Assembly (NCBI GenBank): GCA_041586955.1
Contig: JBFGZE010000007.1
Span: forward strand, 10,341 to 74,340
Origin: Bacteriovoracaceae bacterium
GTDB taxonomy: Bacteria > Bdellovibrionota > Bacteriovoracia > Bacteriovoracales > Bacteriovoracaceae
Direction of reading: 5' to 3'
Length of the DNA: 64,000 nt
Positions within the stretch are counted from its first letter, which is position 1. Each line of letters starts with the position of its first letter. Shown in pieces: positions 13,088 to 50,482 of this stretch. The notes beneath the pieces are model-generated. The model did not search any database. It had not been told where the DNA came from and worked only from the letters and a program-made list of their open reading frames with translations. The translations under genes were made by a program, and so were the position numbers.

Positions 13088-14377
13088 ATGGCAGTAGTAA
13101 ATTTTTCTGACCTGGACTTGATGGCCCCTCTTCTTGCTTATACCAAAGAGAATGAATTTGCCAAACCTACGGGGACCCAAAAACAATCAATTCCCCTGAT
13201 TTTATCGGGTAAGCATACATTAGTTTTGGCACCTCCAGCTGCGGGAAAAACACTTTCCTACGCCCTGCCGCTTTGCCAATTATTGAAAGAAGGTGAAGAA
13301 CAAGGCCTTTACGAAAATACTGCAATTATTTTATTGCCGACTAAAGAATTGGTGGCGCAAGTCTATAAAGTGATTAAGGGGATGACTCATTTTGCTAAAC
13401 TACGAGTGCGTGCTTCCTCTTTACCGATGAAAAGTTTAACGAAAAAAGATATTGATGCTGCCGATATTTTGATCGCTACTCCTAACAAAATGTCCACTTG
13501 GTTTGGCCTGGTTCCCAACCTAAAAGAAAATGTTCGTTTTGTTGTTTTGGATGAATTGGATGATCTTCTAACATCAAGTCATTTTAAAGAAACCCAGAAG
13601 TGCGTTGCCCAGATGCCTCTTAGCCGTGTTCAAGTTATCGGTTCATCTGCGACCTGGGAAGGGCAAATGGACGAGAAACTAGGGACAGTCCTTCCCGGTA
13701 TTAAACCTGCCAAAGTGGTTATGGACGGTGCCAATTGTGTTCCTATCAAGGTCGAAACTTATAATATTTATTGTCATGCTGGTGAAAAATTAAAATTATC
13801 AGATGCCCTCATTAAAGAGCGTTTATCAGGCCCTGGAATTATTTTTGCCAATCGTAAAAGTCAGGTAAAAGAAATTTATGAGACTCTTAAAAAAGATTTC
13901 CCACGGCTCAGGGTTAACCAAATTCACGGGGACTTAGAATTTAAAGAGCGTAAAAAAGTAATGACAAATTTTCGCGATGAGGGCGGGATTCTCGTGGGTA
14001 GTGATGTCGTAGCACGCGGTATAGACATTAAGGGCCTCAATTGGATCATTAATTACGATATGCCTTTTGAAGCAGAGTTTTATATCCACCGTTCTGGGCG
14101 CGTTGGCCGTCATGGAAGTAAAGGTATGGTTGTCAATTTAGTAGAACAACGGGATATGGCGATTATTAAGCGCATTAACCAAGCGATTGAGCAACAATCT
14201 ATTTTAAAAATTGATCCTGTTAAAGTTCGCGAATTGAGTGACAAAAAGAAGTCAGCTACTAAAAAGGCAGCGGTCAAAAAAACAACAAAAGTCGAGAAAA
14301 AGTCAGGATATGGTGCTCTTAAAAAATCAACGAAAATGAAAAGAGTGAAGGGCACTCCTCGCTTTAAACGCCGTTAA
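13088..14377 (+). CDS. DEAD-box family RNA helicase (atypical motifs)
   Basis: Q motif PTGTQ, APPAAGKT, PTKEL, ATP, DELD, SAT, ARGID, HRSGRVGR; basic tail. Confidence 0.9.
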   Translation: MAVVNFSDLDLMAPLLAYTKENEFAKPTGTQKQSIPLILSGKHTLVLAPPAAGKTLSYALPLCQLLKEGEEQGLYENTAIILLPTKELVAQVYKVIKGMTHFAKLRVRASSLPMKSLTKKDIDAADILIATPNKMSTWFGLVPNLKENVRFVVLDELDDLLTSSHFKETQKCVAQMPLSRVQVIGSSATWEGQMDEKLGTVLPGIKPAKVVMDGANCVPIKVETYNIYCHAGEKLKLSDALIKERLSGPGIIFANRKSQVKEIYETLKKDFPRLRVNQIHGDLEFKERKKVMTNFRDEGGILVGSDVVARGIDIKGLNWIINYDMPFEAEFYIHRSGRVGRHGSKGMVVNLVEQRDMAIIKRINQAIEQQSILKIDPVKVRELSDKKKSATKKAAVKKTTKVEKKSGYGALKKSTKMKRVKGTPRFKRR

Positions 14378-32787: not shown

Positions 32788-33039
32788 ATGCAAGAAGTGT
32801 GTGAATATCCGGCCGAACATTGGGTCGAATTAAAAGGTGATCCTTTTTATCGTGGCCGCATTGTTATTTACCCGGTCTCGGAGCGGTTTCATTTGGATGT
32901 GGATATCGTCTATAAAGATTCCCCCAAGATTTTCTGTCATATTGGAACTTTTCTTGGCAACGAGGATGAGCGTGAAAGTTTATGGCAAGGTATTCGAGAA
33001 TTAGAAAACTTTATTTATGCGCGTCAAACTTTTGACTAG
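32788..33039 (+). CDS. Small hypothetical protein
   Basis: Strong SD GGGAGG; 83-aa ORF. Confidence 0.7.
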   Translation: MQEVCEYPAEHWVELKGDPFYRGRIVIYPVSERFHLDVDIVYKDSPKIFCHIGTFLGNEDERESLWQGIRELENFIYARQTFD

Positions 33040-33129
33040 ATGACTGTGGGCGTTAGTCATCTTATTGGCACCATTGATTTTAAAACCACGTGAACCATCC
33101 ACTTCTGGTCCTTTTTGAGATCTCATTTT

Positions 33130-33145
33130 TGGCACGCTCTTTGCT
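33130..33145 (+). promoter_or_regulatory. Sigma54 (-24/-12) promoter
   Basis: TGGCACG-CTCT-TTGCT, exact match to consensus TGGCACG-N4-TTGCW, in intergenic DNA. Confidence 0.75.
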
Positions 33146-33155
33146 ATATATTTAA

Positions 33156-33245
33156 GTGTGTGTGGGAGTTCTTGAAAAAAGGATTTTTTCTTAACTCCAA
33201 AAATGTCTCTCGTAAAAAGGCCCCGTTTTTAACGGGGCTTTTTTT
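33156..33245 (+). ncRNA. Candidate sigma54-dependent small RNA (~90 nt)
   Basis: Lies between the sigma54 promoter and an intrinsic terminator; hairpin GGAGTT/AACTCC plus GAAAAAA-GGA-TTTTTTC; no SD-supported ORF. Confidence 0.55.
33214..33245. terminator. Bidirectional intrinsic terminator
   Basis: AAAAA..GCCCCGTT-TTT-AACGGGGC-T7. Confidence 0.85.
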
Positions 33246-33312: not shown

Positions 33313-34017
33313 TTAAATCATTAAGGCCTTATGATGTGCCATAATAAGGTCAATCATTAGATCCATTATTTTACCCCGATAAGCATCAAATTTTTGCGCA
33401 AGTTTCATCTCGGGAGTCGAGGTATTCTTGTAATCATGAACTTCAAGATAAACGGACCCATCTCCCAATACCTCAACTCTAAAGTCGAGATTAAAAATTC
33501 GCGCCTTAAGAACTTTTTGATCGGGATTATAAGAAATAACAGAAGATAAAATGGCCTCCTTATCATCAGTAAGACTTTTTAAAGACTTTGTTAATAATTG
33601 CACACTGAGTTTTAGCCACTCTTCACCTGTAACTTCCTTTTCTTCTACCTTAACTTCGACTCCAGTAGCGGAAGAGTTGATATAAGAAGTCATATGGTCG
33701 AAGGCCATCTGAGTTGAATTATGAATCAGATTAATAATTAATTCCTCAGGGCCTTTTTCTCCCTTCCCAATAATCCCATGTTTTAATGGATAAAGATCAC
33801 CGTTTAGTAATTGTATAAACCCTAATTGCGAGTCAGTTGTTCCGATGGCAATTTGTTTATTTAATGGACTATTAAGGATGGGGCCAAAGTTTATTTGAGC
33901 GATAAAAGCGTAGCGAGAATTGGTTTGAGTATAATGATGAATTTCATCAATCATTTGGTGGTTATTTATTTTATTAAACGCATTATGTAGTAATTTTTTG
34001 AACATTTTTAATCTCAT
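33313..34017 (-). CDS. Hypothetical protein
   Basis: 234-aa ORF, no recognised motif. Confidence 0.65.
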   Translation of the reverse strand: MRLKMFKKLLHNAFNKINNHQMIDEIHHYTQTNSRYAFIAQINFGPILNSPLNKQIAIGTTDSQLGFIQLLNGDLYPLKHGIIGKGEKGPEELIINLIHNSTQMAFDHMTSYINSSATGVEVKVEEKEVTGEEWLKLSVQLLTKSLKSLTDDKEAILSSVISYNPDQKVLKARIFNLDFRVEVLGDGSVYLEVHDYKNTSTPEMKLAQKFDAYRGKIMDLMIDLIMAHHKALMI

Positions 34018-34217: not shown

Positions 34218-35123
34218 TTAACGCGTTTCTTTCAAAAGAAATGGGTAAATCAGACCCGCTAATAAACGCGCCCCCTTGTTAGAAAGATTGTCGTAGAGAG
34301 GGTTGTATTCATAAAGGCCCAGATAGGAAGGTCGATTTTGGGAGATATTCCAATAATGGTTAAATAGAGCGAATGCCTTTTCTTTACTTATGCCTAGATG
34401 ATTAACTGCACTGACTGCTTCCATAACACTACTATCAAGGCCATCACAATCTAAGGACAGAACGATTTGATCATGATCGTTTATTTGCGGAAAGAGGTCA
34501 ACGACATCCATAGACTCTGTTTTTTGCCAATTGAAGATACGCATGGGGGTAGAGAGCTCGGTAAAAGTACTATCGGTATTGGCGTAGGGATGAATTCCCA
34601 ATTGGGTCAGTTCCATCATACCGGGATGCTCACGGTCAAATTGACGGAAGGGAGTACCAGAGTGGGGAAGTGGGTCTGTGCGGGTGTCCAAATGGGCATC
34701 AATATTCACAACCTTTATCCGGCGTTCGTTTTTGGCAAGGGCCTTAAGTAGTGGGTAAATATGATCATGGCCACCACCTAAATGAATAAATACCGAGGGG
34801 CCTTGCTCGAGCAGAGATTCAATATCCCTTTGCTCTTTTGCTTGCTTAGAGGAGAAGCTTTCCATTGCAGGAGATGAGTGAAGAGTGTGGGCATAGAGGG
34901 GCGGCATCACTGATCGTTTCGATAGGTTTTTAATTTGATTAAAAATCGCCTGAGGCCCAAATTCGCTTCCGCGGCGACCGCCATTGAGCCTAACGCCCTC
35001 ATCGTCGTTCGCGAGGAAAACCATATGGCCATTTTGCTGAGGGGTTTTTGTTAGCAGCGATGAGACTTTGTCGGCGCGACGGCCTTTCAGTTGAGCGCTA
35101 TAGTCAGGTGTTTGGCTTGCCAT
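34218..35123 (-). CDS. hutG: Arginase-family protein, probably formimidoylglutamase
   Basis: DEGVRLNGGR.G, GGGHDH.Y, NIDAHLD.R, HSGTPF, SLDCDGLD, EYNP. Confidence 0.78.
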   Translation of the reverse strand: MASQTPDYSAQLKGRRADKVSSLLTKTPQQNGHMVFLANDDEGVRLNGGRRGSEFGPQAIFNQIKNLSKRSVMPPLYAHTLHSSPAMESFSSKQAKEQRDIESLLEQGPSVFIHLGGGHDHIYPLLKALAKNERRIKVVNIDAHLDTRTDPLPHSGTPFRQFDREHPGMMELTQLGIHPYANTDSTFTELSTPMRIFNWQKTESMDVVDLFPQINDHDQIVLSLDCDGLDSSVMEAVSAVNHLGISKEKAFALFNHYWNISQNRPSYLGLYEYNPLYDNLSNKGARLLAGLIYPFLLKETR

Positions 35124-35239: not shown

Positions 35240-36442
35240 ATGGAAAGTCCTGTAAATAAAAATGACCTGAGTGATGGGCCACCACCGATTCCAAGTATTT
35301 GTTTGCAAGAAGACATGGCACCACCGCCACTCCCGTTTTCTTTAGAAGAGGAAATTCAACCTGAAATAATGTCTCAAGAACGAGTCGCCACAGCGACTCC
35401 TATTGACTCAATTGAGGAAGCTTATGTTAAAGGACCGGAGGAAGGTGAGAAAGATGAAGCTCCTTGGTTCCGTAAAGGTCCCTTTCAATGGTCATGTATT
35501 TTATCTTTCTTTGTGGTGCAATTTGTTTTAGGAGGCTATTTCTTCGGGCAAAGTGACAAATTTCATAATACCCATCGCGTTCACGCCAAGGCGCTTAAAC
35601 GAGTGATGGGCCATAAGGGTTCTCCCAAGTATCGTTTGGTTCCTGATCGCAAGGGCCAGGGGATTTGGCTCGCTTCTAATCAGAAAGGTCCACAATGGAT
35701 TTTGGTAGAATTTGTTGGAACTCCTGGGGATATTATGTCGACCCGGGAAGTGCGAGTGCGTGCCTCTGGCGCCATGAAAGAGGGTCGTCTTTACCTTAAT
35801 AAGTTTGATGTCCTTGCTGGAAACACTTTCGCTCCGGGGGTTTATAAAGTTAAGCTAAAGGCCTACCCCTCGGTAGGTGTTCTGAATAAAAATATTGATT
35901 GGCAAAAACCCAATATTTTAACAACCACCTTTTATTATTACCCTGGTTCGAAAAGGGCACTTAAAAAACGTTTAAAAAAGTTTAAAAACAGGGTCGCGAT
36001 GGAAATGGTTAATCCTTTACGCGATCGTCTTCAAGGTTATAGAACCTATAACGCCCTTTTATTAAAGGTCGAGGGAATGCTAGGACGTTATTTTTCCGGT
36101 CGCAGTCCTAATGTTCGAGGATTTGAAAATGCTTATAATACTGAGGTGGGACCGATTCTGCAGCGCTTGATTTTAGATAATAACCGCCAGCATATTTCAC
36201 TGATGAATTCCAGGCCTGCCGAATCATTGGCCTTTGATAAGTTATTAAGGCATGGTAAGGATATTGGAATGGTTGCTTCAGAGATGGCGAGACTTTTTAA
36301 AACTAAACCCCATCGAAGCCACCAACTATCTTCTCAATTTAAAAAGCGCTTACGCCAATTACAGCAATCTAATATGCTGGAGCTCAAGCAATTGCAGGCC
36401 GAACTCGATTATTTTGGTCCTCTAAAGGGGGAAGGCCTTTAA
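35240..36442 (+). CDS. Hypothetical single-pass membrane protein
   Basis: Pro/acidic N-terminus, one TM helix, basic extracytoplasmic domain. Confidence 0.7.
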   Translation: MESPVNKNDLSDGPPPIPSICLQEDMAPPPLPFSLEEEIQPEIMSQERVATATPIDSIEEAYVKGPEEGEKDEAPWFRKGPFQWSCILSFFVVQFVLGGYFFGQSDKFHNTHRVHAKALKRVMGHKGSPKYRLVPDRKGQGIWLASNQKGPQWILVEFVGTPGDIMSTREVRVRASGAMKEGRLYLNKFDVLAGNTFAPGVYKVKLKAYPSVGVLNKNIDWQKPNILTTTFYYYPGSKRALKKRLKKFKNRVAMEMVNPLRDRLQGYRTYNALLLKVEGMLGRYFSGRSPNVRGFENAYNTEVGPILQRLILDNNRQHISLMNSRPAESLAFDKLLRHGKDIGMVASEMARLFKTKPHRSHQLSSQFKKRLRQLQQSNMLELKQLQAELDYFGPLKGEGL

Positions 36443-49648: not shown

Positions 49649-50482
49649 ATGGGTTATAGAATTAACACCAACGTCACTTCACTGACAGCACAAAGAACAC
49701 TAGGCGCAAGTAACAGAGCACAAGAAAGAACGCTTAATAAGCTTTCTTCAGGACAACGAATTGTCCGTTCCGCTGATGATGCTGCCGGTTTAGCAATTAG
49801 TGAAAAATTGAAAGCTCAGATTCGCTCGTCGAATCAAGCTGAAAGAAATGCAAATGATGGTATTTCCATGATTCAAACAGCAGAGGGTGGTCTGAATGAA
49901 ATTTCAAATATCCTTATTCGTTTGCGGGAATTATCAATCCAATCTGCTTCAGACACCGTCGGTGATTCTGAACGTCAATTCACCGATCTTGAATACCAAA
50001 ACTTAAAGGAAGAAGTTCAAAGAATTTCTCAGGTTACTGAGTTTAACGGTAAGAAGTTATTAAATGGTACTGGCGAAAGGTATGATTTTCAGATTGGGAC
50101 AAATAATAATGAGTTTGAAGATCGAATTTCTTTTGATGCTCAGAGAGTTAACTCTACAAATGAAACTCTAGGAATTGATTCGCTCAATGTTGTGACAAAA
50201 GAAGATTCGCAAAATGCCCTTCAGGCACTTGATTCTGCGATCGAGAATATTTCTGGTCAGCGAGCGGAATTAGGCGCTAAGCAAAATCGTTTGACTTCAA
50301 CCATTAATAATTTACAAGTATCTTCTGAGAACATGAGTGCTGCGAATTCTCGTATTCGTGACACTGATTATGCCTCTGAGACAGCTAAAAATGCGAAGTT
50401 AAATATCTTAACTAACGCAGGTACAGCAGTCTTAGCACAATCAAATGCTCAAGGTGGAAATGCTCTGAAATTGATTGGGTAA
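49649..50482 (+). CDS. fliC: Flagellin (short, 277 aa)
   Basis: RINTN, LSSG.RI..ADDAAGLAISE, QRAELGA.QNRL, SRIRDTDYA.E. Confidence 0.96.
   Translation: MGYRINTNVTSLTAQRTLGASNRAQERTLNKLSSGQRIVRSADDAAGLAISEKLKAQIRSSNQAERNANDGISMIQTAEGGLNEISNILIRLRELSIQSASDTVGDSERQFTDLEYQNLKEEVQRISQVTEFNGKKLLNGTGERYDFQIGTNNNEFEDRISFDAQRVNSTNETLGIDSLNVVTKEDSQNALQALDSAIENISGQRAELGAKQNRLTSTINNLQVSSENMSAANSRIRDTDYASETAKNAKLNILTNAGTAVLAQSNAQGGNALKLIG

Follow-up and report, generated by a model that had tools for sequence, protein, structure and literature searches.

The locus considered here raises the question of whether a sigma-54 promoter lying between two convergent genes, and pointing into DNA with no supported open reading frame (ORF), drives the gene of a small regulatory RNA (sRNA). 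It lies in a stretch of 64,000 nt from a Bacteriovoracaceae bacterium (GCA_041586955.1, contig JBFGZE010000007.1, positions 10,341–74,340, forward strand), which is referred to below as the window and in whose numbering coordinates are given unless another contig is named. The assembly comprises 194 contigs and is 88% complete. From the letters of the window, an original prediction had proposed an unannotated RNA of about 90 nt, controlled by an enhancer-binding protein and acting either as a sponge for CsrA or by base pairing. Comparison with relatives indicates that the locus is very probably a real sRNA gene dependent on sigma-54 and an activator, while its mode of action can be named with far less assurance.

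The local elements were confirmed first by inspection of the window (Table 1). The exact sigma-54 consensus was present at 33130–33145, with GG at −24 and GC at −12 ten bases apart, and the flanking ORFs (32788–33039 on the plus strand and 33313–34017 on the minus strand) do converge. The long hairpin with its inner GAAAAAA/TTTTTTC stem and GGA at the apex, the single-stranded stretch (ATGTCTCTC at 33203–33211) and the strong terminator ending in T7 all lay where they had been predicted, and the proposed start near 33156 fell on the G that opens a conserved (GT)n tract. The genome also encodes RpoN, as judged from a Sigma54_DBD match of 218 bits on contig C25. A terminator-like site was found on the minus strand too, and the terminator is probably bidirectional, common to the sRNA and the convergent gene.

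The motif TGGCAC-N5-TTGCW occurred exactly once in the window. With one mismatch allowed, four matches were found against 1.66 expected; as 8 of 100 shuffles also reached four, the promoter motif alone was not significant. The predicted 90-nt RNA folded at −29.5 kcal/mol (z = −4.48), and none of 200 shuffles was as stable.

Conservation provided the decisive evidence. Positions 33129–33223 had counterparts of 73–85% identity in 10 of 24 further family genomes, and in most of these ten the match began exactly at the promoter (query position 90, window position 33129). A pattern scan using one genome per species found 97 loci, which were pooled with loci from an earlier similarity search to give the 106 analysed. 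Promoter, RNA and terminator occurred together in 105 of these, the remaining locus being a chance match. Nearly all records of the pattern scan were titled Bacteriovoracaceae, Halobacteriovoraceae, Bacteriovorax, Halobacteriovorax or Peredibacter. Because the comparison shows conservation across relatives, the locus is read as a gene rather than a chance motif, its promoter, RNA and terminator being retained as a unit in about 100 species. The conservation of promoter and hairpin in relatives, on which the original prediction had been staked, was thereby established.

A covariance model scored the window's copy at 73.8 bits and found it to be the only one in its genome. Exactly one copy was found in 113 of 150 other family genomes, and 87 of 110 high-quality family genomes (the window's own counted) carried the RNA, while 127 genomes drawn from 24 further families of the phylum yielded none. 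Filtering was stricter in the large searches, which may have overlooked a few weak copies. Within the family, the 37 genomes in which nothing was matched grouped by genus, and many of them are 95–100% complete. Twenty low-scoring homologues, found by the model and missed by the pattern, retained the promoter, the (GU)n start, the GGA apex and the terminator; the core GUCUCU(C/U) was kept in 19 of them. The GTGTG core of the (GU)n tract was invariant in alignment A1 and present in all 20 divergent homologues. In one divergent clade the apex hairpin reads GAGAAGGAUUCUU, with the upper stem altered on both sides.

Within the promoter, the pattern of change was informative. TGGCA and the TG of the −12 element were invariant in all 97 unique promoter regions and the C of the −12 element was kept in 92, whereas all four bases occurred at the five spacer positions. 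Since the contacts are invariant while the spacer is free, selection on sigma-54 contacts is indicated, not sequence inertia. The strict motif TGGCAY-N5-[TCG]TGC was found in 91 of the 97, and in these 91 the (GT)n tract began 11–14 nt after the −12 C, which is where sigma-54 polymerase should start. An A-rich stretch lies upstream of the −24 element. The length of the tract differed between species (about 3.5 to 6 repeats), as slippage might produce, while its beginning always fell at the predicted +1.

Upstream of the promoter, palindromes were counted in 99 unique 220-nt regions and in their shuffles. The exact palindrome GTCA-N6-TGAC, with an A/T-rich centre, occurred 99 times against 0.2 in shuffles, and 145 times against 5.8 when one mismatch was allowed. 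At the latter stringency, 84 of the 99 regions carried at least one site and 59 at least two. The spacing was 31–33 bp, about three helical turns, in 55 of 61 adjacent pairs, and the centres lay about 83 and 115 bp before the −24 GG, or about 105 and 140 bp upstream of the start. Such tandem palindromes are the usual layout of a site for an enhancer-binding protein, and a putative site of this kind, which the original prediction had not included, is assigned here. In the window's own genome the palindrome occurs 47 times, about what is expected by chance according to our own estimate; a sigma-54 promoter with tandem palindromes upstream was found there only at the sRNA locus.

The cognate activator was sought among the ten sigma-54 activators of the same genome. 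None of the ten matched the Pfam FleQ domain at E ≤ 0.001 (in an assembly 88% complete) and none scored above an NCBIfam equivalog cut-off. No activator gene was present within 2.5 kb of the RNA in the 106 loci, and the palindrome pattern was not seen near the activator genes. Two candidates were rejected: the activator on contig C27 was too rare (13 of 150 family genomes), and a GAF-domain activator was family-wide (133 of 150), its homologues forming a continuum of identity independent of the presence of the RNA. A short activator with AAA+ and helix-turn-helix domains was found only in two RNA-positive genomes when three genomes with the RNA were compared with two without, which is too thin to claim, and it has no copy in the window's incomplete assembly. 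The FleQ box consensus of Pseudomonas is given as GTCaNTAAAtTGAC in PMC6120874, a paper that also calls this consensus unreliable genome-wide. The site upstream of the sRNA is a 14-bp palindrome of the same type with an A/T-rich centre. It differs in its setting, as no activator with a FleQ domain was found at the above threshold and the tandem is lacking at every other sigma-54 promoter of the genome; the likeness is one of resemblance only, not an assignment.

The secondary structure was examined in 95 unique RNAs of 85–99 nt. The apical GGA was unpaired in 94 of the 95 minimum-free-energy folds, and all 95 ended in a hairpin closed by six or more pairs ahead of the U-run. The block AUGUCUCUC was fully unpaired in 68 folds, with only its first two nucleotides paired in 23 more. 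Three blocks did not vary, namely the (GU)n tract at the 5′ end, the AAGGAUU at the hairpin apex and the GUCUCUC of the single-stranded stretch.

For covariation, a covariance model with a hand-set structure was used, and all 95 RNAs were realigned to it. In this alignment, pairing was observed in 88.0% of cells against 82.2% in shuffles (0 of 500 shuffles reached the observed value), and changes on both sides were found in 9 of 18 pairs. One pair was divided into 41 GC, 38 AU and 11 GU, with none unpaired, and pairing fell to 42–73% when partners were shifted by one to three columns either way. These statistics lean towards the structure because the alignment was fitted to the model. RNAalifold returned no pairs on a plain MAFFT alignment, as indels misplace the hairpin arms there. 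Terminator stems differed freely between clades, with pairing retained. The compensatory changes in the hairpin that the original prediction had called for were thus found on the model-fitted alignment. Together with the conservation of the unit, the invariant contacts and the upstream sites, they strongly support its central claim, that of a regulatory RNA which had escaped annotation and is controlled by sigma-54 together with an enhancer-binding protein. Membership in a described family, which had been left to a search of Rfam, was answered negatively: in Rfam 15, which includes Qrr, GlmY, CrcZ, Pxr and RsmY/Z, no family reached its gathering threshold, the best match (E = 0.18; 28.3 bits against a gathering score of 48) lying on the opposite strand and being driven by the terminator.

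Table 1. Elements of the sRNA locus and their positions in the window
Feature	Position	Strand	Remarks
Distal upstream activator site GTCAAACTTTTGAC (predicted)	33023..33036	.	Exact GTCA-N6-TGAC palindrome; overlaps the last codons of the 83-amino-acid ORF
Proximal upstream activator site GTCATCTTATTGGC (predicted)	33056..33069	.	Palindrome with one mismatch; distal site 33 bp away
Sigma-54 promoter TGGCACGCTCTTTGCT	33130..33145	+	GG at −24, GC at −12; conserved contact bases
Predicted sRNA, about 90 nt	33156..33245	+	Start from promoter geometry, end from the terminator
5′ (GU)n tract GUGUGUGUG (predicted single-stranded; possible 5′ seed)	33156..33164	+	Core GTGTG conserved
Hairpin 1	33165..33198	+	Lower stem GGAGUU (33165-33170)/AACUCC (33193-33198); upper stem GAAAAAA/UUUUUUC
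Apical GGA of hairpin 1	33181-33183	+	Conserved as AAGGAUU; unpaired in folds
Conserved single-stranded block AUGUCUCUC (candidate seed)	33203..33211	+	Core GUCUCUC; from folds and divergent homologues
Intrinsic terminator	33214..33245	+	A-run, GCCCCG (33220-33225)/CGGGGC (33233-33238), then T7 (33239-33245)

In the mechanism proposed for this gene, an enhancer-binding protein would bind the two palindromes, which precede the start by about 105 and 140 bp, and switch on sigma-54 RNA polymerase at TGGCAC-N5-TTGC. The transcript would begin at the (GU)n tract and end at the intrinsic terminator. The resulting trans-acting RNA of about 90 nt may pair antisense with messenger RNAs (mRNAs) through GUCUCUC (complement GAGAGAC), through its GU-rich 5′ end, or through both, and the apical AAGGAUU loop may serve as a docking site for CsrA. 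The GUCUCUC and (GU)n blocks look like base-pairing seeds. That the locus is an independent gene for a trans-acting sRNA that acts by pairing with mRNAs is given an even chance, and base pairing as the main mode, perhaps with CsrA at the loop, is rated even or a shade below.

Several results weigh against this proposal. A run search for the locus returned no RNA run, the stretch being contained in four DNA runs of one marine-metagenome study, one of which may be its source. No conserved target was found by seed-complement, duplex or start-region searches; in the own genome, seed complements and duplex ranking gave noise. The best seed matches at ribosome-binding sites were either not conserved or consisted only of a 6-nt GAGAGA Shine-Dalgarno sequence, and the sole site pairing with both seeds was the antisense of the sRNA gene itself. 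The C/U-rich seed is short (7 nt), and in a family apparently without Hfq or ProQ neither is there to assist pairing. Since the RNA is missing from the 37 family genomes mentioned above, it is not essential to the lineage, and none of the ten activators of the own genome could be assigned as its cognate.

Individual targets fared no better. A gene for a 198-amino-acid protein was rejected, as homologues were found in two of five genomes and the seed complement was missing there. A perfect 9-mer complement in flagellin leaders was found in 1 of 30 and is not conserved, and the start regions of neighbouring genes showed no conserved seed complement. A gene for a secreted protein of about 123 amino acids was also set aside, keeping only a Shine-Dalgarno sequence of the GAGAGA type. 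This gene carries a sigma-54 promoter and the GAGAGA-type sequence in six of six genomes, and its own-genome copy lies outside the window (contig C26, 22145–22516, minus strand). Its upstream sites resemble TGTC-N9-GACA; because they differ from those of the sRNA, it probably uses another activator. This gene and the single flagellin-leader match were the only suggestive candidates for a target, and both are weak.

Among the other explanations, the one that survives best is that the RNA is mainly a decoy or competitor for CsrA, its AAGGAUU loop mimicking CsrA sites such as those in flagellin leaders; this appears to us unlikely, with perhaps half the weight given to pairing, and equally so the consequence that the RNA would shift the balance of FliW, CsrA and flagellin when the activator fires. 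The distribution of RNA-binding proteins speaks in its favour. Hfq was found in none of 100 family genomes at least 95% complete, and ProQ/FinO was above cut-off in none of 100 near-complete genomes, while 142 of 150 genomes of the family encode CsrA and 99 of 100 near-complete ones FliW. CsrA is thus the sole one of three common global RNA-binding regulators found in the family, and fliW adjoins csrA in the genomes compared by coordinates (e.g., G003:C1:3344894-3345617). This distribution does not discriminate, however, because CsrA and FliW were equally present in genomes with and without the RNA.

The loop itself is suggestive. The apical AAGGAU(U) is the most conserved element of the RNA and lies in a hairpin loop, and it equals the commonest Shine-Dalgarno context of the genome, AAAGGA/AAAAGGA. 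The consensus selected by CsrA in vitro, by systematic evolution of ligands by exponential enrichment (SELEX), is RUACARGGAUGU with GGA in a loop. In four of six genomes the top flagellin leader has, about 38 nt ahead of the start codon, a very similar hairpin with A-rich, GGA and U-rich parts, and after it a Shine-Dalgarno sequence that reads AAGGAGG or AGGAGG (the own-genome leader is on contig C72, start codon at 14304), and a similar GGA hairpin was seen in 12 of 30 leaders across all flagellins. A 13-mer of the flagellin hairpin was not conserved elsewhere (26 matches against 14 for a control). The flagellin leader of genome G147 carries GAGAGACAU instead, a perfect complement of the block AUGUCUCUC of the sRNA.

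The number of sites speaks for the other side. One GGA per RNA was counted in 19 of the 95 sequences, two in 62 and three in 14, but only the apical one is invariant; the GGA in the 5′ arm was missing in 21 of the 95 and in one divergent clade too. Known sponges have many sites, and the invariant GUCUCUC block and (GU)n tract would be left unexplained by a decoy. Nor, to our knowledge and with no search made for one, is an sRNA known that antagonizes CsrA in systems of the FliW type. With just one invariant GGA, a classical multi-site sponge of the CsrB type is unlikely. Of the two functions offered by the original prediction, the sponge in its multi-site form was thus given up, while a CsrA-related role and base pairing both remain.

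In the window's own assembly, two short CsrA paralogues of 58 and 61 amino acids were found on contigs C139 and C128, not beside fliW, and no FliW match was obtained; the core csrA-fliW locus may lie in the missing 12% of the assembly. Relatives have one CsrA gene with a longer frame of about 75–80 amino acids beside fliW. The 58-amino-acid paralogue may resemble enterobacterial CsrA. A flagellin gene is located at 49661–50071 (plus strand), about 16 kb downstream of the sRNA. Flagellin genes lie 13–57 kb from the sRNA in G172, G003, G147 and G009 and none is near in G196, so that the linkage is loose.

A more ambitious combination, which we regard as improbable, would make the RNA the first sRNA partner of a FliW-type CsrA, in a lineage without Hfq or ProQ: a dedicated sigma-54 activator of the FleQ-box-like kind would induce it, its GGA loop would copy the flagellin site, and CsrA would act as a matchmaker for GUCUCUC. 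If the combination were true, an external signal would be tied to the motility and attack-phase programme of the predatory Bacteriovoracaceae. A link of the sRNA to flagella is only suggested by the present data.

It is likewise improbable, on a par with that combination, that the RNA binds another protein or works otherwise, whether with the 83-amino-acid protein encoded just upstream as its partner, as a ribosome-directed mimic of the Shine-Dalgarno sequence, or as a regulator of its own activator. A lineage without Hfq and ProQ would leave room for such a partner, and the presence of three distinct invariant blocks points to more than a single interaction. Members of the 83-amino-acid family were detected in 111 of the 150 family genomes, in part together with the RNA: both were present in 98 genomes, the sRNA only in 16, the protein only in 14 and neither in 23. 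The co-occurrence is imperfect, however, related genomes are not independent, and several genera show no linkage between the protein gene and the RNA. No Pfam or NCBIfam family was found for the protein, which matched only unnamed clusters of a protein atlas, at 0.87 or below. AlphaFold predicts for it a confident beta4-alpha fold (predicted local distance difference test score 89.5). Matches of this modelled fold were weak: VIA-align returned as its best match MmoD, which is unrelated, at Z 8.2 and double-stranded-RNA-binding domains at Z 5–5.8, and Foldseek returned PC4, Pur-alpha and Sm-like proteins at E of about 0.5 (best E 0.47). Several RNA-binding folds are thus among the matches, but all fall below meaningful levels.

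The same upstream gene gives rise to a third alternative, namely that there is no separate RNA, the conserved stretch being the 3′ untranslated region and terminator of the 83-amino-acid gene, or a shared terminator, with the sigma-54 motif serving something else. The ORF at 32788–33039 directly precedes the RNA, in the same orientation, in 42 of the 106 loci, no plus-strand terminator-like site was found between it and the sRNA, and the terminator is probably shared with the convergent gene. Nevertheless, the unit is conserved where the upstream gene differs or is unlinked: 16 genomes have the RNA but not the protein, and many genomes carry the two on separate contigs. Conservation starts exactly at the promoter, the sigma-54 contact bases are invariant, and no gene follows on the plus strand. 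This explanation is accordingly considered very improbable.

Least probable of all, to the point of being negligible, is a small-protein mRNA starting at a conserved ATG (MSL...): the frame opened by the ATG runs for 7 to more than 20 codons and AGGA stands upstream of it, but divergent homologues have AAG, TTG, GGT, ACG or TCG in place of the ATG with GTCTCT retained, the length of the frame and the peptide after MSL track the variable terminator stem, and the AGGA is about 20 nt upstream, within the hairpin, so that, the AUG not being conserved, the locus is not a small ORF.

On the other side of the sRNA, the gene at 35240–36442 (plus strand) has homologues in 48 of the 106 loci and belongs to no Pfam family; the N-terminus of these homologues mostly reads W-F/Y-x6-H-x-G-P-F/Y-S. 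An arginase-family gene at 34218–35123 (minus strand) was found in 62 loci, and the two form a syntenic block around the sRNA.

Bacteriovorax-type bacteria prey on other bacteria, and post-transcriptional regulation in them is almost unexplored. The regulatory RNA is sharply defined in about a hundred species, and its two activator sites, promoter, three blocks and terminator can each be mutated. A lineage apparently without Hfq and ProQ offers a clean setting in which to ask how sRNAs work with only CsrA and FliW, and the locus allows one to ask which signal the dedicated sigma-54 activator feeds into the predatory life cycle. The alignment is a ready seed for a new Rfam family.

Several sRNAs dependent on sigma-54 are known, among them Qrr, GlmY, CrcZ and Pxr. 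With Qrr of Vibrio, which is driven by LuxO and sigma-54, the present locus shares a short gene for a putative trans-acting sRNA that has a sigma-54 promoter of its own, activator sites ahead of it and an intrinsic terminator, and in both cases the activator appears to have very few targets. It differs in having no significant Rfam match, an upstream site (GTCA-N6-TGAC) that is not a LuxO site, and one hairpin plus terminator in place of the four stem-loops of Qrr. Moreover, Qrr needs Hfq, which was not found in this family, and the RNA described here is single-copy.

GlmY (GlrR/sigma-54) and CrcZ (CbrB/sigma-54) of Gammaproteobacteria are also driven by sigma-54 and an activator bound at tandem sites. 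Protein sequestration would be a further likeness, GlmY titrating RapZ and CrcZ titrating Hfq/Crc. Sequence and structure are unrelated, however, with no Rfam match, and only one candidate protein site, the GGA, is conserved here. The likeness to CsrB, RsmY and RsmZ consists in a GGA shown in a hairpin loop and in an organism that encodes CsrA. In contrast to those sponges, one GGA is invariant (one to three in total) instead of many, extra single-stranded blocks are invariant, the promoter is of the sigma-54 and not the GacA/UvrY type, and CsrA is paired with FliW.

CJnc230 (FlmE) of Campylobacter jejuni is reported in PMC11187230 as an RpoN-dependent base-pairing sRNA that represses flgM and another mRNA. 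RpoN dependence and base pairing, both as proposed here, and an organism with a FliW-CsrA flagellar circuit are common to the two. CJnc230 is, according to the same source, cut from the flgE mRNA by RNases, whereas the RNA described here has its own predicted promoter and upstream sites. The present RNA is not beside flagellar genes, and there is no sequence similarity. For the combined model of pairing and CsrA, a precedent is offered by SR1 of Bacillus subtilis, in which CsrA is reported to help the sRNA pair with its target (PMC6546359, PMC8501984); SR1 has an unrelated sequence, does not depend on sigma-54 and codes for a peptide as well. RocR, described as a 66-nt, Legionella-specific RNA (PMC6744872), was dropped as an identity for the present one, whose homologues fall in the Bacteriovoracaceae. 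A full-text literature search returned nothing relevant on Bacteriovorax sRNAs or Halobacteriovorax RpoN.

As the RNA matches none of the known sigma-54-dependent sRNAs in sequence or structure, it is placed as a new family of a known kind, one whose regulatory region is unusually complete and well conserved and whose lineage is apparently without Hfq and ProQ.

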